From positions 1 through 22,883 of the forward strand of contig CAZIHO010000051.1 of assembly GCA_964538875.1 (NCBI GenBank): a stretch of DNA of 22,883 bases. The letters run 5' to 3'. The DNA is from an uncultured Chromatiaceae bacterium. Its GTDB lineage: Bacteria > Pseudomonadota > Gammaproteobacteria > Chromatiales > Chromatiaceae. The position numbers and the translations under genes are program-made. Of this stretch, positions 2,556 through 17,579 are shown one piece after another (the stretch's first letter is position 1; each line of letters begins with the position of its first letter). A model generated the notes under the pieces. It was given only the letters and a program-made list of their open reading frames with translations. It was not told the DNA's origin and ran no database searches.

Positions 2556-4790
2556 TCATTTGGCCGGCGCCGCCGGTGTTAGCAACCGTCCCCGGCGACG
2601 CATCAGGGCCGCATCCAGCAGCATACGCCCGGCCCAGCGGTACACGTTGAATTCCATAACCAACGCTCGCATCAACTTCATCCGGTCCCGCTGCTCGGCC
2701 ACGGGCATGGTCATTGCCAGGTGCAAGGCGGCGGCGCATTGGTCCGCATCGTAGGGATTGACGATCAGGGCCTCCGGCAACTCCCTGGCAGCGCCAGTAA
2801 ACTGCGACAGGATCAGCACCCCCAATTCGTCATCATGGGCGGCCACATACTCCTTGGCGACCAGGTTCATGCCATCGTGGAGGCTGCTGACGAAACAGAA
2901 ATCCGCTGCCCGGTAGTATTCATACACCTGAACCGGCTGATGTTGCTCGGCTTTCAGGATGATGGGCGGCATACCGCCTTGGGCGAAGCGTGCGTTGATC
3001 TGTTGGGCCAGGGCCTCGACCCGGGCTTGATGATCTTGGTATTCACCGATCCGGGAGCGCGTCGGAGCGGCGATTTGGATGAAGCTAAAGCGGCCAATCC
3101 ACTCCGGGCGCAGCTCCAGCAGGCGCTCGATGGCCCGGAACCGTTCCACGATACCCTTGGTGTAATCGAGCCGATCCACGCCCACCCCTAGAAGGCAATC
3201 CGCGGGCAGTCCGTTTTGTGTGCGCAACAGCGGGCGGCAGGTCTCCAACGGCCTGGCCAAGCTGGCGTGTAGCGGCGGCCACTCGATGGAAATGGGATAA
3301 CGGCGCACTGCGGTCAGCTTGCCACCAAAGGAGACGGTGTGGGACTCACGATCCACCCGTGCTTCCAGACAGCGATCCACGGTATCCACAAAGTTGTTGC
3401 AATGGAACATGGTGTGGAACCCCAAGATGCTGCTGCCTAGCAAACCGTCCATGATCTCTGGGCCCCAGGGGCAAATGGCGAAGGACTCAGGATTGGGCCA
3501 GGGAATATGCCAGAAGGTGATAATGGTCGCCTCCGGCAGCCGCTCCCGGATCATGCGGGGCGCCAAGGCAAAATGGTAATCCTGAATCAGCACGATGGGA
3601 TCCGGGGTCTTGGCGGTGGCCACCACCGCGTCGGCGAAAATGCGGTTTACCTCGACGTAATAGGCCCAATCCTCTGACCGGAAGGTGGGCCGCACATGGG
3701 CAATGTGGCAGAGGGGCCACAACCCTTCATTTGAGAAACCATAATAATAACCAGTTTCCTGCTCCGGCGTCAGCCAGATTCGCCGCAGGCAATAGACCGG
3801 GTCATCCGGCGGAACCGCGACTTGGTCCCGTGCGTCCACGGTCTCCCGGTCAGCACTGCCGCTGCCGTGGGCGATCCAAACGCCGGAACACGCCCGCATT
3901 ACCGGCTCCATGGCTGTCACCAGGCCGCTGGCCGGACGGTGCACCTCGACCTGACCCTCCCGGCGCAGGTGAATATAGGGTTCCCGGTTAGACACCAAGA
4001 TAACGTCGTCGCCCCGCAATTCTCCCCGGAGAATGGCCCGCAAGGCCTCTGGGGTCCAGGTAATCTGGCTTTCATCCCGGGACCGGTAGCTCGATTCCAA
4101 TTCCCTCAACAACCGCTGCAGATCCCGGGCGATGGGCTGGAATTCGGGGGCGGGAGGAACCGCAGCGAGGCTGGCCTGGGGACGCCGGACCAGCCCCTCG
4201 CCACGAAGAATGGCGCGCATACCCGCAACCCAGCCGCGCCAAGACAACTGGGCGATCACCACGGTAATGAGTGACACCAGCAGGGTGACACCAAGAAACA
4301 CGTAAAACACATATTGCCGCGTCTCGGCGCTGCGCCGTCCGACGAAGCTCATGTCATGGACGATGACCAGTTGTGCCGCAGGTGCCGATGCCGTGGCCAT
4401 GGATTTAACGGCCAGGTGCAATAGGCCATGGGTATTCTCGAGGATTGGACGGCTTTGTTCACGCCAGCGCGACAGGTCGTTACAGTGAATCTCAGACGGC
4501 AATGACGCGGTCGCGATCATAGGGCCTTCGGGTCCAGCGCAATAAGCGAGGGCGAATAAGCGTTCATCCAGGGTGATATTGCTTAGAAACGCCGTGACCT
4601 TGGCCGGCGCCTGCGAGGCTAGCCACAAGGTGAGGGGTTCCCTGATCGCGTTGCTGATCAGATCAGCACGAATATCCAGATCGCGCTCGAACCAGTGCAA
4701 AGTCAACCGGTCTATCAGCGGTACCAGTCCGTACGCGACAAGGCCTAAGGCAAGGATCAAAGGCACAATGAATCGTAACGATATTCGCAT
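2556..4790 (-). CDS. otsA: Trehalose-6-phosphate synthase (GT20), 744 aa, with a ~255-aa N-terminal extension carrying two predicted TM helices.
   Basis: The C-terminal ~480 aa align with E. coli OtsA from '[11 protein letters not shown]' (E. coli 'RLVVVSNRIAPP') through '[15 protein letters not shown]' (E. coli '[17 protein letters not shown]'). The N-terminus has hydrophobic stretches '[20 protein letters not shown]' (aa 7-26) and '[23 protein letters not shown]' (aa ~160-183). A GGGAGGAGG-like RBS (ggaggagggg on the coding strand) lies just upstream of the ATG at 4790. Confidence 0.85.
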
Positions 4791-5000
4791 AGTGGTCCCC
4801 TCCTCCTTTTATTCACATCGTCAGCCGCGCACGATTCCGAAGAAAAACTTGTTGACGGCAACCTAACAGAGGGTAAAGCCTTACCCGCCTTCCGCTTCGG
4901 ACCCTCCAGATTCCGGTGGCGGTTTTTTCGCATACCCTAGGGTAGTAAAGAAAAAAATAGTGCATTGAAATCCCGTTATAGCCCCTTCTGCCTGAGTTGG
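4791..5000 (-). promoter_or_regulatory. Probable promoter / 5'-UTR region of the otsA-otsB-GH15 operon.
   Basis: Non-coding, locally AT-richer sequence ('agtaaagaaaaaaatagtgcattgaaatc') immediately upstream of the otsA start. No -35/-10 boxes could be assigned with confidence. Confidence 0.3.
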
Positions 5001-5690
5001 ACCGCACGGACACAGACCTGTTCTGTCACTGGACCCGGCAAGAGCCGGCGTCCAACAAACACCTGCCCCCGCCAGCCACTGGTGCTGGTAGACGCCCAGC
5101 TAGGGACGAACCAATCTGGCCGTCTGCAAAGGGCGTCGACTAGGCGGACCGCTAACTGGTTGTCATAGGCTATTTTCCTTGGTGCTCTGGGACATTTGGC
5201 TGGACCTGCAACCGGTCGAGCCGTTGGAATATTCCCGGCCGGAGCGCTGGTCGGGGACTGGAGCGGTAAGGCGATTATTCAGCGCTACCCACTTGGTTTT
5301 CATAAAAATTTCTAAAGGCCGCAAACCAGCCAGAACTGGCACCTATAGCCGCCAATACCGATGAACGGTGCCGGGAATCCCGCATATCCCTTTCTCAGGC
5401 GGGGATCCTTGGGCAAACCAAGAGCACTCACTTCCGCCGCAGCTCCCTGACGCTGGCAATAGGAAGTTATGGTCGGTTGACTATCCGGGGACCGGGAATG
5501 ATCTGGGCTTAGTCAGGATCATTCGGTGTTGGCAGCAGGCTGGTTTCCGGTGGATTGCGAATCGGTTCCAGTTCATGCCACAGACGCCGGTGTTGGGCAA
5601 GACTGGTGGCCGCGGACCTGGGCAGCATCCGGACTTCAGGCGCAGCCGCGCCGGTTGCGAGCAATCAATCACTTATGTCACGAGCGGCGC

Positions 5691-6091
5691 ATGGACTTGC
5701 TCAGTTCGGCCGCCTGGGACCTATCCGCCCTGCCGGAACCGGCCCGGACCCTGGTGGCGGAGTTAGTGGCGCATCCGGCGGCTGGGGACCGGGCCTCCTG
5801 TAGCCTGAATTCCCAGGCCGGTCGCTTCGATTTTCGGGCGGAACGCCTGCAGAATCGCCGGGGCTCCGGCGGCCGGATCCTGGTCAACATCAGTCACGCG
5901 GAACCCAGGGATCTGAGTGTGGCCCGGCGCTTGGCGGATTGGTCCCTGGCACCCCAGGAGAAGCGGAGGCGTTGGGCGTGAAGGTGGGAACCCTGAAGAT
6001 GTACATCAACCAGCTCAAGGCCAAGTTGGAAATCGAGTCACGAGAGGCGTTCATCGGCCAACTGTTGGCGGAACCCCCGTCCGATCCTTGA
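5691..6091 (+). pseudogene. Degraded small HTH regulator (LuxR / sigma-70 region-4-like helix-turn-helix) interrupted by a frame change near 5960.
   Basis: Frame ending at stop 6089-6091 reads 'EAEALGVKVGTLKMYINQLKAKLEIESREAFIGQLL'. This resembles the recognition-helix segment of LuxR/sigma70_r4 HTH domains ('IAE.LGIS.GTVK..L..A..KL'). The upstream part ('MDLLSSAAWDLS...ISHAEPRDLSVARRLADWSLAPQE') is in a different frame. No intact ORF joins them. Confidence 0.25.
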
Positions 6092-6445
6092 GGCGCGGCG
6101 CGGACGGGTTGGGTTCCCGGTCGAGGCGTCCTGAATGGTCCGGTGCACCCCATCCCTACCGCGCCCAGCCAGCACGGCCAGCGTCCACAGCCCGCCCGGG
6201 GGGAAAGCGCGCCATCGCCAGGCAACTCACTAGCCGGGGTGCGCCGATACCCCGCGCCGCTCATTTGGGCAATAACCACCCCATCAGCCTTATCCATGGT
6301 TTGTAATGGGCTGCCTATCCGTTATCCGGTGGATTTTTTGCTGGCCAAATGGTCATTGACACATTTTCAATGGGCCATTCCGTGAAAATATTTCTTTAGT
6401 GTTCATGTGCATCATTTACGGTTTTGCTACCCATGGGTCACCCGC

Positions 6446-6464
6446 TTGGGGCACAGTATGTGCG
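6446..6464 (+). promoter_or_regulatory. Possible sigma-54 (-24/-12) promoter-like motif upstream of the MVP-like operon.
   Basis: 'tgGGGCACagtatGTGCg' has GG-N10-GC spacing resembling the TGGCAC-N5-TTGCW consensus, with one mismatch in each element. It lies ~165 nt upstream of the MVP start. It could be chance in GC-rich DNA. Confidence 0.15.
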
Positions 6465-6630
6465 GGACCTGTGCAACGCCCGGCAGGCATGTCCCCAGGG
6501 TTGGCCGGTCAAGCATCCATTTGGTTGCAACCCAATGGGCTGGGGATCCGGCAGCAGCCTCTGGCGGTGACGGGCTTCGACCCCGGACCTGGCCGACCTT
6601 TTACGTCAAAGAGTTTGAAGGGGATTCAAG

Positions 6631-9165
6631 ATGCCAAGAGAAGACGATCGTCCGATGCGCGAAACGGAACTGGTGCTGCCCCCCGGCGTCTTTGCCTTCG
6701 TACTAGATAGCACTAAGGGTAATATAAATACCTATTGCGGCCCCATCAAGCAAAGCCTGAGTAATACCGACCAATTGGTCGTCTATAACGCCGATAGCCG
6801 CCGCTTCCAACCGGCGGCCAATTTCAGCCAGGCGATTCAGACCCATATCACCGCCGCTAAGGGGCACTACGTCATCCTGCAAAACCCGTCCCGGGATGGG
6901 CATCATCCCGAACCGGGCAAAGCGGAGATGTTGCCCCCGAATTTCCTCAAGACCGGGGAAACCGAGAACCTGCCTGGCCCCCAATCCTTTCCCCTCTGGC
7001 CCACCCAGACCGCTGAGGTGGTGTTGGGCCACCAATTGCGTTCTAACCAGTATCTATTGGTGCGGGTTTATGACGAGGAAGGCGCCCGGACCAATTGGAA
7101 CCAGGGCGTCATCAAGCTGGCGGAAACCGCCGGCGTCGGCAATGCGCCCGCCACCTCGGTGCTGGGCATCGATCCCACCGGCCTGTTCACCGGCCAATTG
7201 CTCATCATCATGGGGAATAAGGTCAGTTTCTATATTCCCCCGAGCGGCATCGAGGTCTTACCGGAGAGCGGCGGCACCGAGCCCCGCTATGTGAGGGACG
7301 CGGTGACCCTGGAGCGGCTGGAGTATTGCATCCTGTTGGATGAAAGCGGCCTCAAGCGTTACTTGATCGGCCCGGAAGTGGTCTTTCCCAAACCCACCGA
7401 GCAGTTCGTGATCCGGGACGGCAAGCGCAAATACCGGGCCTATGAATTGACCGACATCAGCGGCCTGCACATCAAGGTCATCGCCGACTACCAAGAACCG
7501 GACGGCGCCTGGCATAAGGCCGGGGACGAACTCTTCATCACCGGCGCCAGCCAGTCGATTTATTATCCCCGGTCGGAACACGCCATCATCAGCTATGGCG
7601 ACCGGGAACTCTATTACGCCATTGCCATTCCCTCCGGGGAAGCCCGCTACCTGATGAACCGTCGCACCGGCGACATTCGCTTGGTGCGGGGTCCGGCGGT
7701 CTATCTGCCCAATCCCATCGATGAGGTGGTGGTCAAGCGCATCCTGAGCGATAGCGAATGCGGCATGTATTTTCCCGGCAATGGCGCGGTGCTGGACTAC
7801 AACCGGTCCCTGCGGACCCGAGGTGCGGGTGGGGCGGCGCCCCTGGAAATGCCACCGGACGGCCCCCGCCCGCCCCCACTCCCGGCGGCGCCAGCCGTCG
7901 CCCTCCGGGAACTCGCTGGCCCTGGTGCCTTCGGCGACACCCTGCAACGGGTAGCGACCTACACTCCCCCACGCACCATCACGCTGGACACCAAGTTCGA
8001 GGGGGCGGTGACCATCGATGTCTGGTCCGGGTACGCGGTGCAGGTGGTGAATCGCCAAGGGGAACGCCGGGTGGTGACCGGCCCCCAAACGGTCTTGCTG
8101 GCCTATGACGAGATCCTGGAACCCCTGGCCCTGAGCATGGGCACTCCCAAGGACCCGGCCCGCACCCTCAAGACCGTCTATCTCCGGGTCCGCTCCAATG
8201 CGGTCAGCGACCGGGTCAGCGTCAAAACCCGGGACCTGGTCCCCCTCACCGTGCAGTTGAAGTACCTGGTGCGGTTCGACGGTGATCAAGCGAGCTGGTT
8301 CAACATCGACAACTACATCCAATACCTTTGCGACCATTTGCGCTCCCTGATCGGCAATCAGGTGCGGGCGATCGGGGTGCTGGAGTTCTATTTTTCCGCC
8401 GCCACCCTGCTGCGGGACCTGGTGTTGGGCGCCAAGGCCCAGGACGGCAGCCGGCCGTTGCGGCATTTTGCGGAAAACGGCATGACAGTCTATGACCTGG
8501 AGGTGATTAGCATCTCCATCGACGATGACCGCATCGACCAACTGCTGCACCAATCCCAGCAAGAGAATCTGCTCAACACCATCGAGTTGGAACGGCAACA
8601 GCGCCTGCATCTGCTCACTGCCGGCCAGGAACAGGCCAAGCGCCAGATCGAGCAGGAGCGGGCCACTACCCAGGCCCTCACTCAACAGCTGTTGCTGGAC
8701 ATTAGCGAAGGTCAGGACCGGCTGGCCATGGCGGAAATTCAATCCCAGACGAGCCGGGAACAGCAACGGGCCAACGGGACCCTGGAAGTACAGGCGATCG
8801 ACAGCCGCATCGCCGCAATGCGGCTGGCGGAGCGCCAGGCGCAGTTGGAAAGCGAGGCCCATTTTGCCCACCTGGCCCTGGAACAGCGCCTGCGGGAGAG
8901 CGATGCCCAGGCCCGCCACCTCACCGAGCAAATGGCGGCCATCCAACCTGCCCTGGTAGAGGCGCTGACCGCCATCGCCGCCACCGGCACCCTGCAATCC
9001 CTAGCGGAACATCTGGCGCCCCTGAGCCTGGTAAGGGACCAAAGTCTGGCGGCCACCCTGGAGCAGATGTTCCGGGGCACCCCCCTGGCGGGGCTGTTGG
9101 ACAACCTGCGTCAACTGGGCCAGGGACGGCTGTTGCAAGGAGAGGACCCGGCCGATGCCAGCTAG
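6631..9165 (+). CDS. Major vault protein (MVP)-like protein, 844 aa.
   Basis: The N-terminus 'ELVLPPGVFAFVLDSTKGNINTYCGPIKQSL...VVYNADSRRFQPA...KGHYVILQNPSRDG...GPQSFPLWPTQTAEVV' parallels human MVP '[32 protein letters not shown]...VLFAPMRMVTVPP...PRHYCTVANPVSRDAQG...AQDPFPLYPGEV'. Repeated ~55-aa MVP-repeat-like segments follow, and the Gln/Glu/Arg-rich C-terminal helical region resembles the MVP cap-helix. An AAGGGG RBS lies 8 nt upstream of the ATG. Confidence 0.85.
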   Translation: MPREDDRPMRETELVLPPGVFAFVLDSTKGNINTYCGPIKQSLSNTDQLVVYNADSRRFQPAANFSQAIQTHITAAKGHYVILQNPSRDGHHPEPGKAEMLPPNFLKTGETENLPGPQSFPLWPTQTAEVVLGHQLRSNQYLLVRVYDEEGARTNWNQGVIKLAETAGVGNAPATSVLGIDPTGLFTGQLLIIMGNKVSFYIPPSGIEVLPESGGTEPRYVRDAVTLERLEYCILLDESGLKRYLIGPEVVFPKPTEQFVIRDGKRKYRAYELTDISGLHIKVIADYQEPDGAWHKAGDELFITGASQSIYYPRSEHAIISYGDRELYYAIAIPSGEARYLMNRRTGDIRLVRGPAVYLPNPIDEVVVKRILSDSECGMYFPGNGAVLDYNRSLRTRGAGGAAPLEMPPDGPRPPPLPAAPAVALRELAGPGAFGDTLQRVATYTPPRTITLDTKFEGAVTIDVWSGYAVQVVNRQGERRVVTGPQTVLLAYDEILEPLALSMGTPKDPARTLKTVYLRVRSNAVSDRVSVKTRDLVPLTVQLKYLVRFDGDQASWFNIDNYIQYLCDHLRSLIGNQVRAIGVLEFYFSAATLLRDLVLGAKAQDGSRPLRHFAENGMTVYDLEVISISIDDDRIDQLLHQSQQENLLNTIELERQQRLHLLTAGQEQAKRQIEQERATTQALTQQLLLDISEGQDRLAMAEIQSQTSREQQRANGTLEVQAIDSRIAAMRLAERQAQLESEAHFAHLALEQRLRESDAQARHLTEQMAAIQPALVEALTAIAATGTLQSLAEHLAPLSLVRDQSLAATLEQMFRGTPLAGLLDNLRQLGQGRLLQGEDPADAS

Positions 9166-11782
9166 CCTTAGCACCCAGCCCTTCACGCTGATCCTGGCGG
9201 ACAGCCTCACCAACGACTTCATGGGCGGCGGGGCGTTCGAGCAAACCGGAGTACATATCGGCCAGCGGGACGTGGAGCGGCTGATGGGGGCCGGCAGCGC
9301 GGCCGGCAACGGCCCCCTGCCCACTTTCTTGAGTCAGGCGGTGGCAGCCCGCCGCCAAGGCCGGCCCATCGGCCTGATCCTGGTGCGGGATTGCCACGAC
9401 CCCAAAGACCCGGACCAACTGCCGGAACTGCTCCGCTATGGCCGTCATAACGTCCGGGGCGAACAAGGCGCCGCCTTTTTGCCCTTCCTCAAGCCCCTGC
9501 TAAGTGCGGCCGCCATCCTGGAAACCCGCTCCCTGTCCCTGCCCCTCAAATCTCTGCGGCGGGTGACGCGACGCCTGTTAGGACAGGATCTACTGACCCT
9601 GAACGGGGAACAGCGGCGGCTGCTACGCTGGGTGCTGGTGGGGTGCCACACGGACAAGCGGATCCTGGGCACCGCCAATCTGTTGCGCAACGTGTTGGAA
9701 TTTCCCAATGTCGCGGTCTGCCCCCATCTGGTGGGGAGCAGTAACCACGAGGCCCACCTGGCCAGCTTGCAGGTGGCTCTGCCGGATGCCTTGGTGCAGG
9801 TGTTTCCCGATCTCCGCGCCCTGCTGGGGTTCGCCGGCCTGGCGAAAAAGCCGTTCCGCCAGTTCGACTGCCGGGGCGCGGCGCTGGGGCCACCCGGCGT
9901 GATCCAGTCCTTGAACGCGGACCAGAGGCACATCCTGGAGCTGGCTTTTCTCCGTTGCTCCCAGGTGACCCTGCAACCTTTGAGCGGCGGATTTAGCGGC
10001 AGTCTGCTGTGGCTGGCGCGGCGCCAGATCGACGGCGTGGCGGGGGCGCCGGTGGTGGTCAAGATCGACCGGCATGGGGCTATGCAAAAGGAATTGGAAG
10101 GCTACGACCGGGTCAAGGCCATCTTTGGTAGTCAGGTGCCCAGCTTCGGTACGCCCATCTCGTCCGGCGGTCATACCGGCATCCTCATGGAACTGGCCTC
10201 CCGTTCCGGCACGCCCCACACCCTGCAATGGCTGTTTGAGCAGGCGGTGGAACAGCGCGACCCGGACCAATTCCTAGCCCCGCTCCGGGCCAGCCTGGAA
10301 TTGCTGCACCAGCGCCTGTACCGGCCCACCTTGCGCCGGTGCCGCTTCTCGCCCTGGCAGCGGCTCGGGCTGTCCGCGCCCCAGCAATGGGAGTGGCTCA
10401 GGGAGAATATCGGCCACATCACCAACGACGGCTGGCAAGGCGGCCCGATCCGGCTGACGCCGGATCTGGTGTTGGAGGACTTCACCGCCCTGTTCCAGCA
10501 ACTGGCCGCCGACTCCCATTGGCTGCCCGGCGCCCATTGCCTTGGCCATGGAGATCTGAACCTGGCCAACATCATCCTGGATGACCTGGCCAATGTCTGG
10601 TTCATCGACTGGACCCACGCCGGGTTGCTGCCCGTGGAATTGGATCTGGCCAAGCTGGAAAACGACATCAAGCTGGTGGTCAGCAAGGGGCTGGCCCACC
10701 AGGACCTGGGGGACCTCCTGATCCTGGAGCGTCTGCTGCTGGAACAGCGGCTACCCCTGCCCCTGGAGGAAGCGGCCAAGCGGTTGCCGGGGTTGGCCAG
10801 CGACCCGCACCTGGCCTTGGTTTACCAATCCGTGGCCGCCATCCGCCAGCGATACGCGGACCTGCATCCAGAGCAGGATGACACCCTGTATCAAATCGCC
10901 TTGCTGCGTTATGCCACCCATACCCTCAGTTTCGATGCCCGGCGCGGGCGGGGCGAGTGCAGCTTGGAGCAACTGCGACACGCCCTGGGCACCGTGCATC
11001 TGCTGGTGCAACAACTGGCTAGGGGCGATTTTCACCGGCTGACCCCCGCCGTGCGGCCCGACTCCTACCCGGACCGGCAACGGCTACCCCGGGAACTGGC
11101 ACCCTGGCCAGTGCCCTGTCCGGACTATCAGCCCCCCTTCCATGAGGACCCCATCCTGTCCCACAGCGACTGGGCTGATCCCCTGGACATGGACTGGGCG
11201 CCGCCGGATGACGCCGACCCTTGGCGGGACCCCCTGGGCCGTCCCCTCAATCCACGGGGCCGCACCGGCTTGGCGGGACGGGGGCTGCTGGGCCGCTGGG
11301 GCGCCAACCGGGCGGTGGATCCGGTTATCACCCGGATCAATCCCGGTAACGGCCGGCTGGAACTGCTGCTGGGCCGCCGTTGGGACACCGGCGAAAGCTC
11401 CCTGCCAGGCTGTATGCGGCTGGCGGGGGAAAGCGAGGCCCAGGCCCTGGTCCGCTGCCTGCGGCTCAAGGCCGGGATTTCCCTGCCCATGAAAGCGGGC
11501 AGCCGGGTCTACCGGGGGCCGGTGGACGATTTCCGGGACACGGACCACGCCTGGATCGAAAGCAGCACCTGGAGTTGGCATTTGACCGGCAAGGCGGCCC
11601 GGCGCCTGTACTTCCGGGGCGGCGGCGGTCTCGGCGAACTGGGCTGGACGGGCATCAGCCCCGAACTGCTGCGGAGCCTGTTCGCGGGCCACGCGGACCT
11701 GGTACGGTGCGCCCTGCGCTGGCGGGCCGCCCGCCGCGAGCCCGGCGCCGATCAGATGGAACAGCTTTTACGGGAGAGTTGA
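9155..11782 (+). CDS. Three-domain protein, 875 aa: N-terminal isochorismatase/cysteine-hydrolase-like domain, central APH/protein-kinase-like phosphotransferase domain, C-terminal NUDT9-type Nudix (ADP-ribose-binding/pyrophosphatase-like) domain.
   Basis: N-terminal domain: '[11 protein letters not shown]...[13 protein letters not shown]...[13 protein letters not shown]...[18 protein letters not shown]' follows the isochorismatase/PncA pattern (VIDxQNDF ... HCVxGTxGAxF ... VVGIATDxCV). Middle domain: '[30 protein letters not shown]' is the HGD catalytic loop plus the DFG-equivalent of APH/choline-kinase-fold enzymes. C-terminal domain: '[29 protein letters not shown]' and '[25 protein letters not shown]' closely match human NUDT9 ('[29 protein letters not shown]', '[25 protein letters not shown]'). 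The start overlaps the MVP stop by 11 nt, with an AGGAGA RBS upstream. Confidence 0.8.
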   Translation: [875 protein letters not shown]

Positions 11783-11789
11783 CCTGACC

Positions 11790-12353
11790 TTGGAACGAAC
11801 CTCCACCACCCACCCCATCCGCATCGACTGGGTGTCCCTGGGCGGCCGGGGCCGCATCGGCATGACCTTCTGTCCCGGCAAGGTCCAGGACGACGCCTGG
11901 ACCGGCCGCTGGCGCCGGGATCTAGGCACCGATCTGCTGGCCATCCGCCGCTGGGGGTGCCGCCTGCTGCTGTCCCTGATCGAGGAACCGGAATACCTGG
12001 AATTAGGCGTTCCAAATCTGGGAGCAGAGGCCCAGCGCTACGGCTTGGCCTGGCAGCCGCTGCCCATCCGGGATCGATGCGCCCCGGACCAGCGTTTCGA
12101 GGCGGCCTGGCCCCAGCTATGGCCACAGGTGCAAGAGGTATTAGAGCAGCGGGGAGACCTGGTGCTGCACTGCAAAGGCGGACTGGGACGCACCGGAACC
12201 CTGGCCGCCTGCCTGCTGGTCAGTTTCGGCGAGTCACCGGCCAGCGCCCTGGGCCGGGTGCGTCTGGCCCGTCCGGGAACGGTGGAAACCCCGGCCCAGG
12301 AAGCCTATGTGCGGGCTTGGCCCGCCAGGTGGGCAAGTCTGGGCCAAAAATAA
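11790..12353 (+). CDS. CDKN3/KAP-like dual-specificity protein phosphatase (CX5R active site), 187 aa, TTG start.
   Basis: Active-site loop 'LHCKGGLGRTGTLAACLLVS' matches the CX5R signature (HCxxGxGR[ST]G). It is especially close to human CDKN3 'IHCYGGLGRSCLVAACLLLY'. A GGGAGAG RBS lies 11 nt upstream of the TTG, and the gene begins 7 nt after the previous stop. Confidence 0.7.
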   Translation: MERTSTTHPIRIDWVSLGGRGRIGMTFCPGKVQDDAWTGRWRRDLGTDLLAIRRWGCRLLLSLIEEPEYLELGVPNLGAEAQRYGLAWQPLPIRDRCAPDQRFEAAWPQLWPQVQEVLEQRGDLVLHCKGGLGRTGTLAACLLVSFGESPASALGRVRLARPGTVETPAQEAYVRAWPARWASLGQK

Positions 12354-12388
12354 GTCAGGCCCATCCTGGATGCGCCGGGATCAGACCA

Positions 12389-12690
12389 GATCCACCCGGC
12401 TGCCGTTCCATTGGACCGCCCCGGTCCCGGCCCTCGTACACCCGGGAGCCTGGCGCACGGCTGCCAATCAGTACCCATGTCCCAGCGGTTGGGATAGGGT
12501 TTCCAGGCGCCTTCGATGCCGCTGGTGGTGGCGCAACCCCCCAGGCCAGACCTGCTCACCATCTCCAAACTGCCCGGCGATGCTGTTACCCGCATCATCA
12601 GCCGGCACTATGCCCACCTGTGCCACAACACCCTGAAAGCTGCCGTCACCAATCGGCCCAGCTTGGGGCATCAGGCCGAAACCAAAAGGA
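12389..12690 (-). pseudogene. katG: Catalase-peroxidase (katG) gene fragment, internally deleted and frameshifted.
   Basis: DNA is ~88% identical to two separate parts of the intact katG in this window. Segment 12389-12480 matches katG 17925-18025 (C-terminal lobe, 'DMGTDWQP...'). Segment 12472-12560 matches katG 19018-19095 (N-terminal lobe, '[11 protein letters not shown]...WDMG'). The two are joined at a shared 'cccatgtcc' (DMG) junction. An 8-nt indel ('tgccccgg') and further indels break the frame. Confidence 0.65.
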
Positions 12691-12788
12691 AGCCAGACCC
12701 ACGGTCTGCACGTGCAAGCGCAGACGTGCCCTGCAAGGGGATGGGCGCGGAGCGGGAACGCGCTGGCGGGAGTGGCATCCGACGACGG

Positions 12789-13070
12789 ATAGGAAATCCA
12801 ACCGGCCCAGGAAACCATCCCTTTTTGTTGTTTATGATCAGATAGTTAGCGAGCACCCGGATGTAGGTTTAGTAGGCTGGAGGCACCTGCCAAAGCCTCC
12901 GGTAAGAATCTGGCGGCAGGTTTTTAGCGGTTGGGAAGCAGACGGGGAACCGCTTGCGGAATCTAACGCAAGCTCAATCCAGCTTCGCACCAGGTGGCCT
13001 CACAGAACTCTCGGTTAGTATGCCGGTGCCTCGGCTGCGGAACCGCTTACCAACTGCCGGTCTGGTCGAA
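12789..13070. repeat. 282-bp repeat element, copy 1 (no terminal inverted repeats; probable non-autonomous mobile element).
   Basis: Direct sequence comparison shows ~93% identity to 14198-14480 over the full length, in the same orientation. Contains conserved hairpins ('ctggaggc-acctgccaaa-gcctccgg', 'gcttgcg-gaatctaa-cgcaagc'). Confidence 0.85.
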
Positions 13071-13121
13071 TTGGCCGACGACTCGGCCGAGGCCGTGTTT
13101 GCCAGGATCAAGGGGCGGTGA
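13071..13121 (+). pseudogene. 3'-terminal remnant (~16 codons) of an antitoxin gene (TIGR02574-like 'addiction module component'), truncated by the upstream repeat.
   Basis: Frame reads '...LVELADDSAEAVFARIKGR*', with TGA overlapping the GTG start of the downstream ParE-like gene (GTGA). The '...IPAEEVFARLRAR'-type C-terminus is typical of antitoxins paired with the RFPY-type RelE/ParE toxins. The match to the repeat consensus ends at exactly 13070. Confidence 0.35.
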
Positions 13122-13412
13122 GGATTCGCGTCCTCTCCCGCGCCGAGGAAGAATTTGTTGAAGCGGTCAAGATACAACAATGAGCGTCCCAGACTTGGCC
13201 ACGAGTACATTGAGGAGGTGCAGGCCGTCTTCGACCGCATTCATGCCTTCCCCGACCCATGCCCGATCTTTTCCGTCCGTGCGCGTCGCTGCCTCGTCAG
13301 GCGTTTCCCGTATCCTATCCTCTACCAAGTCCGCGCCGACCGCATCCTCGTTCTCGCCATCATGCACCTCAAGCGTGACCCCAATGCCTGGCGCCAACGG
13401 GCAACCAACTGA
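13118..13412 (+). pseudogene. RelE/ParE-family toxin gene (~98 codons) with a +1 frameshift near 13171.
   Basis: N-terminal frame: 'VRIRVLSRAEEEFVEAVK', then premature stop at 13181. The rest is in the -2 frame: 'YNNERPRLGHEYIEEVQAVFDRIHAFPDP...VRRFPYPILYQVRADRILVLAIMHLKRDPNAWRQR'. Together they match the ~97-aa RelE/ParE toxins ('YRIRVLPRAE..L.EI..YY......LG..FL.EV......I...P........VRRAPVRRFPYGVFYRV.GD.VVVLAVYHTRRDP..W'). A single extra 'a' in 'aag A tac aac' creates the shift. Confidence 0.6.
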
Positions 13413-13631
13413 GCCGTCTCGTATCGCAGCACCGATAACTTCGGTTGATCGTTCCCGCACGGGAAGCGACTCTTGGGATTGGAGCTTATGGATACTGCTC
13501 CGCCCGCTTCACCCGCTTGTAGAGATCCTTCTCACGGGGTTCCAAGGGCGTAGCCGGGCAGGGGTTGAGGACCTCCACCCTGCGGTTGGCGTTGTACTGG
13601 ACTGGACCACCACCCGCGGGGCGGGTCTACC

Positions 13632-14108
13632 CTATGGCTTCTTCAGCGGATCGTTGGCGACCTTGGGGTCCAGGTAATCGATCAGCGCCACGAGGCCGCC
13701 CTTCAAGGCGTAGACGTTACTGAAGCCGATGTCCCGCAGGGCCACGGCGATCAGGGTGCAGCGCAGTCCCTGCTGGCAAACTACCAGGACCTTCTTGTCG
13801 GTGGGGATCCGCGCGAGATTGTCCGGTTGAAACACCTCGTTCATCTGCATGGACAAGGTATCCGGGTTACCGATACCGAGCACGCGGCGTTCCGCTGGCG
13901 TACGCACATCCAGTATCACCACGGACTCGCCGGCCTTGATCCAGTTGACCAGCGTTTCCGGGGGTATCCTGGCCAGGGCCTTGGGGGTATTGGCATCGGC
14001 GAAGGGGGCGAACAGCCCCTCGTACTGTTTGGCCTTGGTCGCGTCATAGGCACCGGCCGTGCCCATGAGCAGCATCAGCAGGGGCAGCATGAACAGGCGC
14101 CATTTCAT
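13632..14108 (-). CDS. Periplasmic single-domain rhodanese (sulfurtransferase), 158 aa, with signal peptide.
   Basis: N-terminal signal peptide 'MKWRLFMLPLLMLLMGTAGA'. Rhodanese active-site loop 'VVCQQGLRCTLIAVALRDIGFSNVYALKGG' (Cys in the CxxGxR loop). A GAGGAG RBS lies 7 nt upstream. Confidence 0.8.
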   Translation of the reverse strand: MKWRLFMLPLLMLLMGTAGAYDATKAKQYEGLFAPFADANTPKALARIPPETLVNWIKAGESVVILDVRTPAERRVLGIGNPDTLSMQMNEVFQPDNLARIPTDKKVLVVCQQGLRCTLIAVALRDIGFSNVYALKGGLVALIDYLDPKVANDPLKKP

Positions 14109-14197
14109 CTCGTTTCTCCTCAGTGAGCGGAATCAATCATCCGTAATTTTTGGCTATACCCGCCGGGGCAGGCACTTGCCATGATTTTTCGCAACAA

Positions 14198-14480
14198 ATA
14201 GGAAATCCAACCGGCCCAGGAAACCATCCCTTATGTTTCGTTTATGATCAGATACTTAGCGAGCACCCGGATGTAGGTTTAGTAGGCTGGAGGCACCTAC
14301 CAAAGCCTCTGGCAAGAATCTGGCGGCAGGCTTTTAGCGGTTGGGAGGCAGACGGGGAACCGCTTGCGGAATCTAACGCAAGCTCAATCCAGCTTCGCAC
14401 CAGGTGGCCTCACAGAGCTCTCGGTTAGTATGCCGGTGCCTCGGCTGAGGGACCGCTTACCAACTGACGGTCTGGTCAAA
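14198..14480. repeat. 282-bp repeat element, copy 2.
   Basis: ~93% identical to 12789-13070 in the same orientation. It lies immediately 3' of the IS91-family transposase C-terminal remnant on the minus strand. Confidence 0.85.
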
Positions 14481-14639
14481 CGGGAAGTCATGCTGCACTT
14501 CCCTGTGCAGCACCCTTCGGGCGGCCTAGGGCCGTGCAAACCGGCTTTCCTGCCGGTTGTTCAGGTTCAGGCTGGGCCAGGGGATCAAATGACGGCAAGG
14601 CTTGCGCGCCTGTCGCTGGTTGTCCCTCGCTTTCCTCCC

Positions 14640-14886
14640 ACCAAATAGGTGGCCCCCTGACCGGGGAGACCTTATGCGGATCGGTGGGCTGGCCGATGTG
14701 CTTCAGGATGCGGAGGACCGTTGAACCCTGGGGAACGAAGGCGATAATCCGCAGGTCAGCCGAGCAGTTCGGACAGGTGAGCGGCACCGACTCGTACAGA
14801 CGGGCCAAGAGAACGGCCCAGAGATACCGGGCCGGAGAGCGCCAGCACCCTCGTCGGCTAAGGAACTTAACTGCCCCGCTGACCAA
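14640..14886 (-). mobile_element. IS91-family (HUH rolling-circle) transposase, C-terminal remnant only.
   Basis: 'YLWAVLLARLYESVPLTCPNCSADLRIIAFVPQGSTVLRILKHIGQPTDPHKVSPVRGPP' matches the conserved C-terminus of IS91/IS801-type transposases ('LLARVFE.DVL.CP.CGG.MRIIAFIED..VI.KIL.HLGL......PP'). There is no upstream catalytic HUH/Y2 part. The ORF abuts the low-GC island. Confidence 0.55.
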
Positions 14887-15004
14887 ATGGGCGACTCGGC
14901 TCCCATGAGCGTCTGGCTGTCCAAAAAGTCCTGCGCCAGATCGCTGCTTATGGCGGTGACATCCCGAAGGAATTGATCGTCTAATTGCAAGTAGAAAGTC
15001 AATA

Positions 15005-15035
15005 GCGCGGACAAATGTCCGCGCCGTTTTTCTTA
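15005..15035. terminator. Stem-loop terminator-like hairpin immediately after the GT2 gene stop, possibly bidirectional.
   Basis: 'GCGCGGACA-aat-TGTCCGCGC' is followed on the + strand by 'CGTTTTTCTT' and on the - strand by 'TATTGACTTTCT'. It starts directly after the TGA of the 15036-16517 gene. Confidence 0.5.
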
Positions 15036-16517
15036 TCAGGGAAGTCGTGGAGTTATGGTAATGGAGGAAACAGGCACTCCAAGCAATCTTTTATCTTTAG
15101 GGACAAGCCAGGGCTCGCAAGTTAATGCAAAACGGGTTGGTGCATCTTCGTTTACCTGAAACGAAATCCTTCGCGGAGCGCGTTCCTGCAAAACTGGCAT
15201 TGGCTTCTCGTTGATATAAAATTTTAAATTCTCTATAGGCCGAATAGCCATTAACCAGTCAATCTCCAGATCATAATTACCCGGCACCAGGGAAATTTCT
15301 ATCATTGCAACGGGTTCGCTCCACCTAAATCTTTTGCCCTGCCATTCTTCAGAAGCATAAAAGCCCCCAAAAGGGTAAGAGCGCGCTTCATCCGCAGTCC
15401 ATCGTAGGGATGAAGTGGCTGCTGAAGGCTTTTCCTCAATATCGAAAGCGAAGCGAACTCTTTCAAGCTTAACCGTCGCATCGATCAGCTGCAAAAATTG
15501 TGTGTGTAGATAAGATTTTCCGAACCGCAAATTGAGCAAAAGGGTTAAGAGCCATCGTTTAACTTGAAATCGAAGCCAGGCATGGGTCAGGGATGTTCTC
15601 TTTAATGTTTCAAATGGAAAACTTAATCTAAGTAACATCAAGCCGCGTGCAAATATCTCACGAGGGCTCAAACATCTTCGGAAAGACTTCGAATGCGAAT
15701 TGGATGACAGCCTAAATGCCCTGTCATATAATCTCGAATTCCATCGATAGAAATTCAGCCACTCGAGCGGGTCTGGAAAATAAGAGCGGCTTTCATCATC
15801 TTTATATTTTGAAAGGTATGTCATTTCCCCACGGGCAAAATCTTCCGAAAATTTAATTAACTCTTTTATTTCTCCGATATAATAATGATGCACTTGGGCT
15901 TCTGGTACATACCCGATTTGATATCCATTTTGGTGCATTCGGGCAGCTAAATGCCATTCAGCAAAGTGACCAAGTTCGGGGTTAAATCCGCCTGCCTTAT
16001 GGTAATTTCCTGCACGCACTACAAAACATTGATCTAATATTCTCCTCCAAGGACATTCATTCATACCATAAAGGAGATCGGCTTCATACATATCGGCTTC
16101 GATCACAGACAGGCGATTGTGCGTTATACGAATAGATTGGCAGGAAAACCCTGCCCAGTCCGGATGTTCATCAATCGCTTTATCTGCTACGGACAAAATA
16201 TTTCGATCTGGCAAAACATGAGATTCGGTGAAAAACAATATTTCACCTTGGGCTTGTCGGGCGCCAAATGCACATAAAGCCATGTCGTGAGGCTCATCAA
16301 AGAGCAACAATCGATCATATTCACTCAATAGGGTCTTGAAATATGCAATTGTCTTTAAATCTAATGAGAATCGGCACCCAACAGCAACGACTTCAAATTG
16401 TTCGCGCAGGTAATCTTGCTCTTTAACCCAACGGCGTAGACATTCTTCACTTTGCCCACGATGGAACTCTAATGGAATAATGATCGAAAAACGAAAGGAC
16501 GGTTTTTTTTCAGCCAT
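15036..16517 (-). CDS. Family-2-like (GT-A fold) glycosyltransferase with a ~250-aa C-terminal domain of unknown function, 493 aa, low GC.
   Basis: N-terminus 'FSIIIPLE' and 'AQGEILFFTESHVLPD' match the GT2 start and DxD region. '...VRAGNYHKAGGFNPELGHFAEWHLAARMHQNGYQIGYVPEAQVHH' matches the GT2 'GGF.E......ED.DL..R....G..I.Y.P.A.V.H' region. Local GC (~45%) is far below the flanking DNA. It is 33 nt downstream of the sulfotransferase gene on the same strand. Confidence 0.65.
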   Translation of the reverse strand: MAEKKPSFRFSIIIPLEFHRGQSEECLRRWVKEQDYLREQFEVVAVGCRFSLDLKTIAYFKTLLSEYDRLLLFDEPHDMALCAFGARQAQGEILFFTESHVLPDRNILSVADKAIDEHPDWAGFSCQSIRITHNRLSVIEADMYEADLLYGMNECPWRRILDQCFVVRAGNYHKAGGFNPELGHFAEWHLAARMHQNGYQIGYVPEAQVHHYYIGEIKELIKFSEDFARGEMTYLSKYKDDESRSYFPDPLEWLNFYRWNSRLYDRAFRLSSNSHSKSFRRCLSPREIFARGLMLLRLSFPFETLKRTSLTHAWLRFQVKRWLLTLLLNLRFGKSYLHTQFLQLIDATVKLERVRFAFDIEEKPSAATSSLRWTADEARSYPFGGFYASEEWQGKRFRWSEPVAMIEISLVPGNYDLEIDWLMAIRPIENLKFYINEKPMPVLQERAPRRISFQVNEDAPTRFALTCEPWLVPKDKRLLGVPVSSITITPRLP

Positions 16518-16550: not shown

Positions 16551-17579
16551 CTATACAGACTCCACTATCTGCATATTACGGACGCCCAAAATAAGCGGAC
16601 GGGTATCGCCATTGGGCAGCACAGGGATGGTGGCCTGCTCCACTGCTTCAAGGATAAGTTCATTCTCGCCAACAGAGACCGGCACACTTACTGCTACAGC
16701 ACCCGGCTGGACAGCGAGTATAACGCTCCAATTTCCTGATGTTACACGAAGATGCCGTTCAACATGCGCATCGAAACTGGGGCCTGGGATGGCATCAAAC
16801 ATCAAACGGATTTCCCCATTAAATGCCGTATAAACATCTAAGTGAGTTGCGGCTCCGCCGATCCAAAAAAAAGGTAAGTTATCTAATGTTTCCAATCCGT
16901 TTGGGTTGATAACGGATAGCACCTGTAATGGCAGATTGGTCTCGGCGGTCCCATCGGCATACCCGGCTGGCAATGAATATCCAAATTCTTCACAAAAATC
17001 AACCAATGAACGGCGCAAACGGGCTGGGAACGTGTTCAGGTATTTAAAAAGTACCGGGTTCTTTTTCCATTTTTCGATCGAGTCTGAAAATATCCGAATT
17101 CCTGCTCGGTTTTCACTAAAAGTATGAGCGACGGCAAGGTCGAAGTGTTTTGACAATTGTGTCTGAACAACATCTGGTTTGGCGATCAATTCTTCATACT
17201 TCAAAATAAACACTTTCGGGTTCGGCTGTTTCTTGCGCAGGGTATGCCAGGCATCATATTCCATCATCCAACGATCGAACGTAATATGAAATCTGCGCAA
17301 ATGCTTAGTTAACGGATGTGTACTGGTCAAGACATCAAACGGATGACGCACGCAATAGATTAGCCCTATATCATCGGGTAGAGACGCAAGGGTTCGCCAA
17401 CATTCGCCGGTTCGTTTGATGACAACATTACTTTCAGGGCAGAAAATTTTGGAAAAGCTTGAAAAAGGGGCTTCACCATATGCGCCTTCCGTGTATACAT
17501 AGGTATCTTCAAAACACCCCATTAGATCCCGGATCAAAGTCGTTCCGCTTCTTCCGCAACCAGCAATAAAACTCTTCAT
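16551..17579 (-). CDS. Sulfotransferase-family protein (Sulfotransfer_3-like) with an extra C-terminal domain, 342 aa, low GC.
   Basis: PAPS 5'-phosphosulfate-binding loop 'IAGCGRSGTTLIRDLM' (consensus GxxRSGTT). 3'-phosphate-binding region 'IYCVRHPFDVLTS' (RDPRD-type). AT-rich upstream region. Co-oriented with the GT2 gene. Confidence 0.7.
   Translation of the reverse strand: MKSFIAGCGRSGTTLIRDLMGCFEDTYVYTEGAYGEAPFSSFSKIFCPESNVVIKRTGECWRTLASLPDDIGLIYCVRHPFDVLTSTHPLTKHLRRFHITFDRWMMEYDAWHTLRKKQPNPKVFILKYEELIAKPDVVQTQLSKHFDLAVAHTFSENRAGIRIFSDSIEKWKKNPVLFKYLNTFPARLRRSLVDFCEEFGYSLPAGYADGTAETNLPLQVLSVINPNGLETLDNLPFFWIGGAATHLDVYTAFNGEIRLMFDAIPGPSFDAHVERHLRVTSGNWSVILAVQPGAVAVSVPVSVGENELILEAVEQATIPVLPNGDTRPLILGVRNMQIVESV

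Follow-up and report, generated by a model that had tools for sequence, protein, structure and literature searches.

A kinase-linked NUDT9-type domain with a degenerate Nudix box encoded by an uncultured Chromatiaceae bacterium

ADP-ribose sensing by dead Nudix domains has been described in vertebrate TRPM2 and in bacterial NrtR. In human TRPM2 (PDB 6PUS/6PUO), a NUDT9 homolog made up of the Cap and Core subdomains (NUDT9-H) is fused to a signaling protein and has lost the first Glu of the REUXEE motif of the Nudix box. In NrtR (PDB 3GZ8, with ADP-ribose), a bacterial Nudix-fold domain serves as a non-catalytic ADP-ribose sensor controlling an attached effector, a winged-helix DNA-binding domain, but it belongs to another Nudix subfamily and has no NUDT9 Cap. 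Here, we analyzed a 22,883-nucleotide (nt) stretch of DNA from an uncultured Chromatiaceae bacterium (contig CAZIHO010000051.1; "the window" below), in which an 875-residue protein carries a NUDT9-type domain behind a kinase domain. The domain shares the Cap and Core, the GRTG loop and the DDxRxTDxAW loop with human mitochondrial NUDT9 (PDB 1Q33/1QVJ) and with free-standing bacterial forms, which have a canonical RE[FL]xEE box and are known or expected hydrolases; it differs from them in lacking the three Glu and the GDD Asp pair and in being fused to two further domains. We liken it to NUDT9-H and NrtR in its presumed mode of working, as a member of neither family, and the kinase-fused family would constitute a third setting for dead ADP-ribose-sensing Nudix domains, with an independent origin.

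NUDT9 mutants with the boxes RILGEE or REFGKK are inactive, as is human NUDT9-H with its RILRQE box (PMC6461439), and the mutants and human NUDT9-H all retain ADP-ribose binding (PMC6461439, PMC4974056). A swap of the first Glu alone (AILGEE in nvNUDT9-H, RILGEE in NUDT9) impairs or abolishes catalysis, although nvTRPM2 is active despite its non-canonical AEFGEE box (PMC6461439). For the TRPM2 of S. rosetta (srTRPM2), PMC11479946 gives E1386 as the Mg2 ligand, D1460, in a loop after the Nudix helix, as the base, and W1264 and F1372 as the adenine-stacking pair. Contacts to the ribose-5-phosphate moiety in NUDT9 are made by R273 (human TRPM2 R1433), H324 (H1488), Y321 and D172 (PMC5473349).

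The NUDT9-type domain and its degenerate Nudix box

A phmmer search against PDB chains returned human NUDT9 (1q33) as the top match (E = 2.5e-24, spanning chain residues 13–279); the only further matches were NUDT9-H domains of TRPM2 (E = 3e-16 to 7e-13), and the family profile matched 1q33 with an E-value of 1.7e-36. The AlphaFold2 model of residues 625–875 had a mean pLDDT of 90.5, and the best Foldseek matches of this model included the S. rosetta TRPM2 chanzyme (8sre, E = 1.8e-18) and human TRPM2 (NUDT9-H matches at E = 3e-13 to 5e-10), with NUDT9 1qvj as the best whole-chain structural match (TMq 0.78); NrtR (3gz8) appeared at rank 25 (E = 1.8e-8, 18% identity). NUDT9-specific loops of the types GRTG..GRG..G.WG.N and DDxRNTDNAW are present, and the homology, beginning at about nt 11048, includes the Cap subdomain. 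Residues ~632–875 are therefore a full NUDT9-type domain. A local Pfam scan of the isolated C-terminal piece gave zero matches even at E ≤ 10, NUDT9_N and NUDIX included, and the assignment rests on the PDB sequence search, structure prediction and precomputed Pfam tags. The initial annotation, made without database searches, had already recognized a NUDT9-type domain, and the motifs that it quoted are found at residues 699–727 (nt 11249–11335), 786–802 (nt 11510–11560) and 751–775; its domain start at 11245, on the other hand, is one base off the frame of the open reading frame (ORF), and the homology reaches ~200 nt further upstream.

In HMMER and MAFFT alignments alike, the segment RCLRLK of the window protein lies opposite REFGEE of NUDT9. 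The box retains its Arg, the xGU Gly and both Gly and Glu of GX5E, and all three Glu of REUXEE are replaced, so that the protein unites both kinds of change seen in the inactive mutants RILGEE and REFGKK. In the AlphaFold model, the segment sits on a helix (model residues 137–149, corresponding to residues 761–773) that overlaps the Nudix box, and the strings E..EE, RE..E and E.EE occur nowhere in residues 621–875. Beyond the box, our alignment shows that the loop G303-D304-D305 of NUDT9 has become G823-G824-G825. With RCLRLK in the box and GGG in place of GDD, all four acidic catalytic positions are absent. Replacement of the catalytic glutamates and a resemblance to NUDT9-H of TRPM2 had both been claimed from the sequence alone, and both hold; the 25-residue segment that holds the box, previously put at 11407–11480, occupies nt 11405–11479 in the true frame.

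Statistics on 91 aligned C-terminal domains of relatives show how far these changes extend. At the position of the first REUXEE Glu, the relatives have Val (51), Ile (18) or Ala (6), followed by Thr, Met and Leu, with Glu not among the six commonest residues, and a Leu follows this position in 65 of the 91. Glu is found at the second position in 7/91 and at the third in 46/91, where Lys occupies 12, the subgroup of the window protein included; an acidic residue is present at the base-loop position in 39/91. Retention is high for the Glu of GX5E (87/91), the Arg (86/91) and the Gly of xGU (81/91). Loss of the first Glu is thus family-wide, ancient and selected rather than a product of decay, since the catalytic Glu is gone across many phyla while the box Gly, the Arg, the GX5E Glu and the loops persist. 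Within the close lineage, the degenerate box is identical in a 99%-identical homolog (P0001), and a 73%-identical relative (P0110) has the box RCLQLK and the same GGGG loop as the window protein; the degenerate box is accordingly a stable state, neither a sequencing error nor a recent lesion.

The family box consensus, R-[VI]-L-x-x-E-T-G-W, closely resembles RILRQE of human TRPM2, which keeps the third Glu that the window protein has lost (RCLRLK). In contrast, free-standing bacterial NUDT9-like proteins of 240–300 residues (P0112–P0125), 41–44% identical to the window domain, keep the canonical GMVDxGE...RELxEE, which indicates that the fused lineage specifically gave up catalysis. Because the free-standing bacterial and the invertebrate TRPM2 versions are canonical, the bacterial loss appears to be independent of that in TRPM2. 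Some of the free-standing proteins (P0112–P0125, P0144) are annotated as Sungiibacteriota or Pacebacteria. A neighbor-joining tree of the Nudix cores, a distance tree too crude to bear on the number of loss events, puts the subgroup of the window protein closer to the canonical free-standing proteins than the main fused clade. In a library of 1.84 billion proteins, 2024 match the NUDT9-like domain at E ≤ 0.001, among them proteins of 2000–4000 residues; NUDT9-type domains are far wider spread than the eukaryote-centered literature suggests.

The ligand pocket, by comparison, has been largely spared. Equivalents of NUDT9 D271, R273, T275 and D276 are present in 91/91 relatives and that of W279 in 90/91, and the GRTG-type loop with GRG..G.WG.N is nearly invariant. 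The adenine-stacking Trp of srTRPM2 is matched by a Trp in the WADP motif, and the F1372 position, which is the residue after the first box Gly, is Phe in 74/91 and Met in the window protein, as in NUDT9. The bacterial family thereby keeps the Trp/Phe pair of the ancestral srTRPM2-type site, a pair lost in human NUDT9-H. The window protein also keeps R794, H846 and D722, equivalent to R273, H324 and D172 of NUDT9, the first two of which correspond to Arg1433 and His1488 of human TRPM2; an equivalent of W110 is present as well. As far as the alignment can tell, the terminal-ribose contacts are NUDT9-like in its subgroup and not in the main clade. The combination of lost catalytic residues and retained pocket residues is the pattern expected of a binding module. 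Coordinates of these and the other features are collected in Table 1.

Table 1. Features of the 875-residue protein and its neighboring genes, in positions of the window
Feature	Coordinates (nt)	Strand	Basis
Three-domain gene, 875 residues: nicotinamidase-like + TCAD9 kinase + NUDT9-like	9155..11782	+	ORF list
Nicotinamidase (PncA)/isochorismatase-fold domain, residues ~8–235, predicted catalytically dead	9176..9859	+	AlphaFold, Foldseek
PncA-type metal-site-like motif, residues 78–102	9386..9460	+	aligned with B. subtilis PncA 'DSHDADD-DFHPETRLFPPHNINGTEG'
Arg169, in place of the nucleophilic Cys of PncA	9659..9661	+	PncA 'TDiCVLhTA' aligned with family 'TDkRVLsTA'
TCAD9/APH-choline-kinase-like kinase domain, residues ~262–625, predicted active	9938..11029	+	Pfam
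Catalytic loop HGDLNLAN (residues 465–472) and Mg-binding FIDWTH (residues 483–488)	10547..10618	+	invariant columns
Complete NUDT9-type domain, Cap + Nudix Core, residues 632–875	11048..11779	+	phmmer, profile, AlphaFold, Foldseek
Trp673 of WADP motif (adenine-stacking Trp, srTRPM2 W1264)	11171..11173	+	alignment; Trp in 79/91
Vestigial Nudix box, residues 752–774; REUXEE -> RCLRLK (nt 11453–11470)	11408..11476	+	alignment to NUDT9
Arg794 of DDFRDTD (NUDT9 Arg273, human TRPM2 Arg1433), phosphate/terminal-ribose contact	11534..11536	+	91/91
Gly824-Gly825 at the NUDT9 Asp304-Asp305 position (srTRPM2 catalytic base D1460)	11624..11629	+	alignment
DSP/PTP-type phosphatase, PTP-SAK family, active-site loop HCKGGLGRTG	11790..12353	+	Pfam
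Major-vault-protein homolog, 844 residues, full-length	6631..9165	+	Pfam MVP_shoulder 71.8 bits, Vault_3 43.1 bits

Fused domains and gene neighborhood

The ORF behaves as a real gene, as judged by its codon-position GC pattern (GC1/2/3 = 0.72/0.47/0.82), the 99%-identical P0001 (17 member sequences from other assemblies, with the precomputed Pfam tag NUDT9_N) and ~100 more distant homologs. In total, 109 homologs of the 875-residue protein were collected, and ~95 share the full architecture at 36–43% identity. A family scan of representative genomes yielded 80 loci, every one from metagenome-assembled genomes, among them Gemmatimonadota, Acidobacteriota, Gamma-, Alpha- and Deltaproteobacteria, Bacteroidota, Planctomycetota, Myxococcota, Acidimicrobiia, Leptospiraceae and Peregrinibacteria. 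The family is widespread but uncultured, and in it a true NUDT9 homolog that has lost the same Mg-binding Glu as human TRPM2 is wired to a kinase. Database labels on the relatives include "ADP-ribose pyrophosphatase" (a JGI automatic name), "NUDIX domain-containing protein" and "phosphotransferase"; those naming an ADP-ribose pyrophosphatase or a NUDIX protein amount to systematic misannotation, as the activity is almost certainly absent.

The central domain belongs to the TCAD9 family (PF19974, "ternary complex associated domain 9"), which it matches at 102.7–106.6 bits against a cut-off of 40 (102.7 bits in the comparison with the family), with a further match to APH at 29 bits; relatives match the Choline_kinase and APH models. 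The only PDB sequence matches were weak ones to choline kinases, a macrolide phosphotransferase, ACAD11 and RIO2. All 88 relatives share the β3 Lys (K303), the αC Glu (E313), D467, N472 and D485, and the domain is on this ground predicted to be an active phosphotransferase. Partners of the vWA/MoxR type that would mark a "ternary system" were absent from the 25 commonest Pfam families of either neighbor set. Pfam scans found no helix-turn-helix domain in the 875-residue protein. Paralogous modules in which an isochorismatase-like and a TCAD9 domain are joined by PTP-SAK in place of the NUDT9-like domain were also seen (P0108, P0109 and L003:10615-12924), and in L003 the PTP-bearing module is encoded directly after the NUDT9-bearing protein. 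Versions from Peregrinibacteria (L068 and L070, ~630–640 residues by ORF call) have no NUDT9 domain, and an IMPase-family gene directly follows them.

The N-terminal domain, overlooked by the initial annotation, is predicted to be a second dead enzyme. The AlphaFold model of the N-terminal ~240 residues (pLDDT 94.9) has nicotinamidases/pyrazinamidases as its top PDB matches in Foldseek (3s2s, 5zn8 and 3o91; E ~1e-8, probability 1.0, TMt 0.73–0.77), and a profile built from seven N-terminal domains matched B. subtilis PncA at E = 0.0011, although the Pfam Isochorismatase match stays below threshold (11.6 bits against a cut-off of 27). With PncA of B. subtilis (5ZN8) and S. pneumoniae (3O91) it shares the fold and, in the subgroup of the window protein, the D-x-H ... 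H-N-x-x-G metal-site segment; it differs at the nucleophilic Cys, which is Arg in 80/88 relatives and Gln in 7/88. The metal-site segment (RDxHDP...RYGxHNxxG) is kept in the window protein and in P0002, P0003, P0004, P0006, P0015 and P0032 and deleted in most relatives. The call of a dead nicotinamidase is based on the Cys position, the alignment of the triad Lys being unreliable. The kinase would thus be flanked by dead homologs of enzymes that act on the two products of NAD+ cleavage, nicotinamide and ADP-ribose.

The phosphatase gene starts 8 nt past the stop of the kinase gene, and its product matches PTP-SAK (46.2 bits), Tc-R-P (41.9 bits) and CDKN3 (35 bits) in Pfam, with a weak match to PTP-NADK ("phosphatase fused to NAD+ kinase"). 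With the window's PTP as the query, tblastn recovered L003 only; Pfam shows a PTP-SAK protein adjoining the relative in L005 as well, and since tblastn missed it, the linkage is possibly under-counted. Neighbor counts, which combine Pfam scans of flanking same-strand ORFs with jackhmmer positional counts, place an IMPase-family gene directly downstream in 41 of 57 loci (e.g., L004:10545-11453, L015:4799-5704 and L007:12593-13492). These neighbors form an unassigned subfamily; they score far below all NCBIfam cut-offs (HisN, CysQ, SuhB, NADP phosphatase/NAD kinase) and show weak similarity to HisN, CysQ and NADP phosphatase/NAD kinase. The robust functional link joins the kinase to a phosphatase, a role taken by one or the other of two unrelated phosphatase types. 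In a metagenome-assembled genome of Leptospiraceae, two tandem HisG (ATP phosphoribosyltransferase) paralogs (L007:8599-9965) precede the family gene and the IMPase-family (HisN-like) gene follows it, which ties the locus to phosphoribosyl chemistry by association.

Upstream of the relatives (62 loci), STAS proteins occur in 30/62, RsbW-like HATPase_c_2 in 27/62 and Band_7 in 8/62; of the 103 upstream ORFs scanned, 13 have SpoIIE phosphatase domains. A ~457-residue K+ channel-like protein (Ion_trans/Ion_trans_2 with a C-terminal cNMP_binding domain) is encoded directly upstream of 21/62 relatives (e.g., L015:802-2178 and L033:8604-9977), and a TrkA_N protein is a frequent second downstream gene (14 ORFs). 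Links to partner-switching proteins and to K+ channels or transport regulators are frequent, not universal. The placement of a gene for a NUDT9-H-like protein beside a cation-channel gene echoes TRPM2, but here the genes are separate and the window has no such channel; the bacterial effector itself also differs from TRPM2 in being a kinase, predicted to be soluble and without a TRPM channel fusion.

In the window, the kinase gene overlaps the stop of the upstream gene, which encodes the homolog of the major vault protein (MVP), by 11 nt. This protein has >6000 homologs, and a conserved MVP–kinase system was rejected, as tblastn and jackhmmer found 0 MVP homologs in the loci of 84 relatives. 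Three closest MVP homologs were examined (L087–L089; 53–54% identity); none has a TCAD9, NUDT9 or PTP neighbor, and two of the three lie on phage-like contigs with many small ORFs and a Gp5 baseplate domain, one of them 400 kb long. The MVP linkage may be specific to the lineage of the window. NAD+ and ADP binding sites were reported in 2025 for the human vault cage (PMC12280208), a possible thematic link. A known defense system was considered and set aside: PADLOC gave zero matches for the MVP-like, kinase and PTP proteins, the NCBIfam matches were far below threshold, and PHROGs matched only the PTP, with a dubious label.

The literature searched, whose coverage is incomplete, yielded no account of this architecture or operon, nor of TCAD9 flanked by nicotinamidase-like and NUDT9-like domains. 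"TCAD" is absent from the main text of Kaur et al. 2020 (PMC7159879), and a survey of NAD-ADPr in viruses (PMC9503650) does not mention NUDT9, PTP or TRPM. The family is of interest for a loss convergent with that of vertebrate TRPM2, a second dead NAD-salvage domain and a frequent link to an ion-channel gene, and its dead NAD-salvage-type arms, dedicated phosphatase and channel gene offer a testable entry into bacterial signaling that depends on NAD+ or ADP-ribose.

Possible roles of the NUDT9-type domain

The reading that we rate most likely, at a probability of about 45%, is that the dead NUDT9 domain binds an ADP-ribose-like nucleotide without cleaving it and is coupled to the kinase by allosteric gating. 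The domain would have been retained to bind ADP-ribose or a close NAD-derived adenine nucleotide, and occupancy of its cleft would modulate the neighboring kinase; a similar contribution may come from the N-terminal nicotinamidase-like pocket, and the downstream phosphatase (PTP-SAK here, IMPase-family in most relatives) would reverse the kinase reaction. A sensor rather than a pyrophosphatase had been suggested from the sequence alone, and the suggestion gains partial support from the family-wide loss in the box, the additional loss of the putative base Asp, the canonical boxes of free-standing bacterial homologs and the conserved ligand contacts. We infer ligand binding, the ADP-ribose-like nature of the ligand and kinase regulation through binding from these patterns.

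Several points weigh against this reading. The positions of D172, H324 and Y321 are mostly Ala, Gln and Pro in the 91 aligned relatives, and the ligand may be other than plain ADP-ribose or may differ between the subgroup of the window protein and the rest. Weak or altered catalysis is conceivable, given that the box still has its Arg and the Glu of GX5E and that the third Glu survives in about half of the family. The AlphaFold models cover the two flanking domains, each alone, and communication of the NUDT9-like cleft with the kinase is a proposal that goes beyond them. Lastly, an APH-type kinase with IMPase or DSP/PTP-SAK partners would point to a small-molecule phosphorylation cycle, which fits a substrate-holding role equally well.

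That role is the strongest competitor, although we consider it unlikely on balance. The kinase would add a phosphate to a hydroxyl group on a nucleotide derived from NAD, such as ADP-ribose, NAD+ or NaAD, docked by one or both dead arms, with the NUDT9-like arm taking the ADP-ribose end and the nicotinamidase-like arm the pyridine end; the domain would give specificity, and the phosphatase would remove the phosphate. The kinase is of the small-molecule type by its APH and Choline_kinase matches and its weak PDB matches, its commonest neighbor comes from the IMPase superfamily, whose characterized members are small-molecule phosphomonoesterases, and each arm descends from an enzyme acting on one half of NAD+. 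The DSP/PTP phosphatase of the window and of L005 looks like a non-orthologous displacement, and its weak PTP-NADK match points the same way. However, DSP/PTP enzymes can be protein phosphatases, the STAS/RsbW/SpoIIE partner-switching neighbors suggest signaling at the protein level, and it is conjecture, beyond what the structural models show, that the cleft of the NUDT9-like domain lies at the active site of the kinase.

Less probable again is a ligand-free scaffold, in which the dead NUDT9 domain would no longer bind a nucleotide and would mediate dimerization or the docking of partners such as the channel, STAS, MVP or the phosphatase. Such a role would accommodate the replacement of the D172, H324 and Y321 ribose contacts in most relatives and the existence of Iso-TCAD9 modules that have no NUDT9 domain or a PTP instead, and there is a precedent in vertebrate TRPM2, where NUDT9-H has been built into the gating machinery as a structural element (PMC11479946). 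The residues that are 90–100% conserved across phyla, however, line the nucleotide cleft (R273, D271, T275, D276, the WADP Trp, the GRTG loop and the GX5E Glu); a pure docking module needs no cleft residues, and the subgroup of the window protein keeps D172 and H324 too.

We regard as doubtful a more elaborate possibility, that the protein is the writer of an NAD-derived messenger. The dead arms would clamp both ends of an NAD-type dinucleotide or ADP-ribose, the kinase would yield an ADP-ribose phosphate or an NADP-like or NAADP-like product, the phosphatase would erase it, and the cNMP-binding K+ channel, the TrkA-N protein and the STAS/RsbW module would read it. If true, the system would parallel, in prokaryotes, the cation-channel signaling gated by ADP-ribose or NAADP, such as that of TRPM2, and might share ancestry with it.

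It is very improbable that the domain still hydrolyzes ADP-ribose or another Nudix substrate with the help of non-canonical residues, in the manner of some atypical Nudix enzymes, in which case the JGI name would be correct: the conserved GX5E Glu and box Arg, the third Glu and base-loop acid kept in part of the family, the active AEFGEE box of nvTRPM2 and the pyrophosphatase labels of relatives speak for it, but the Mg-coordinating first Glu, where a single swap impairs or abolishes catalysis, is not among the six commonest residues at its position in the 91 relatives, the window protein is in addition without the other two Glu and the base Asp, with no alternative E..EE-type motif in the domain, and bacteria possess canonical stand-alone paralogs.

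Other features of the window

Downstream of the phosphatase gene, a 252-nt direct repeat (94% identity) occurs at 12819–13070 and 14229–14480, without an Rfam match; a scan of 4700–15100 against Rfam gave zero matches overall. The two copies bracket an ORF for a ParE toxin at 13155–13412 (Pfam ParE_toxin, 29 bits) and a rhodanese gene at 13632–14108 on the (−) strand, and the bracketed segment may be a mobile or recombination-prone cassette. From ~15000 to ~18000, the GC content falls to 0.44–0.49, compared with 0.60–0.70 elsewhere; this island holds a sulfotransferase-family gene (16551–17579) and a 493-residue ORF without a Pfam match (15036–16517), both on the (−) strand, and was probably acquired horizontally. 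On the other side of the locus, 1.8 kb without a convincing ORF (4791–6630) separate the MVP gene from a divergent trehalose operon (otsA-like, 2556–4790, (−) strand). Within this gap, a 50-residue ORF at 5939–6091 resembles by eye a LuxR/GerE-like C-terminal helix-turn-helix, a likeness unconfirmed by Pfam.

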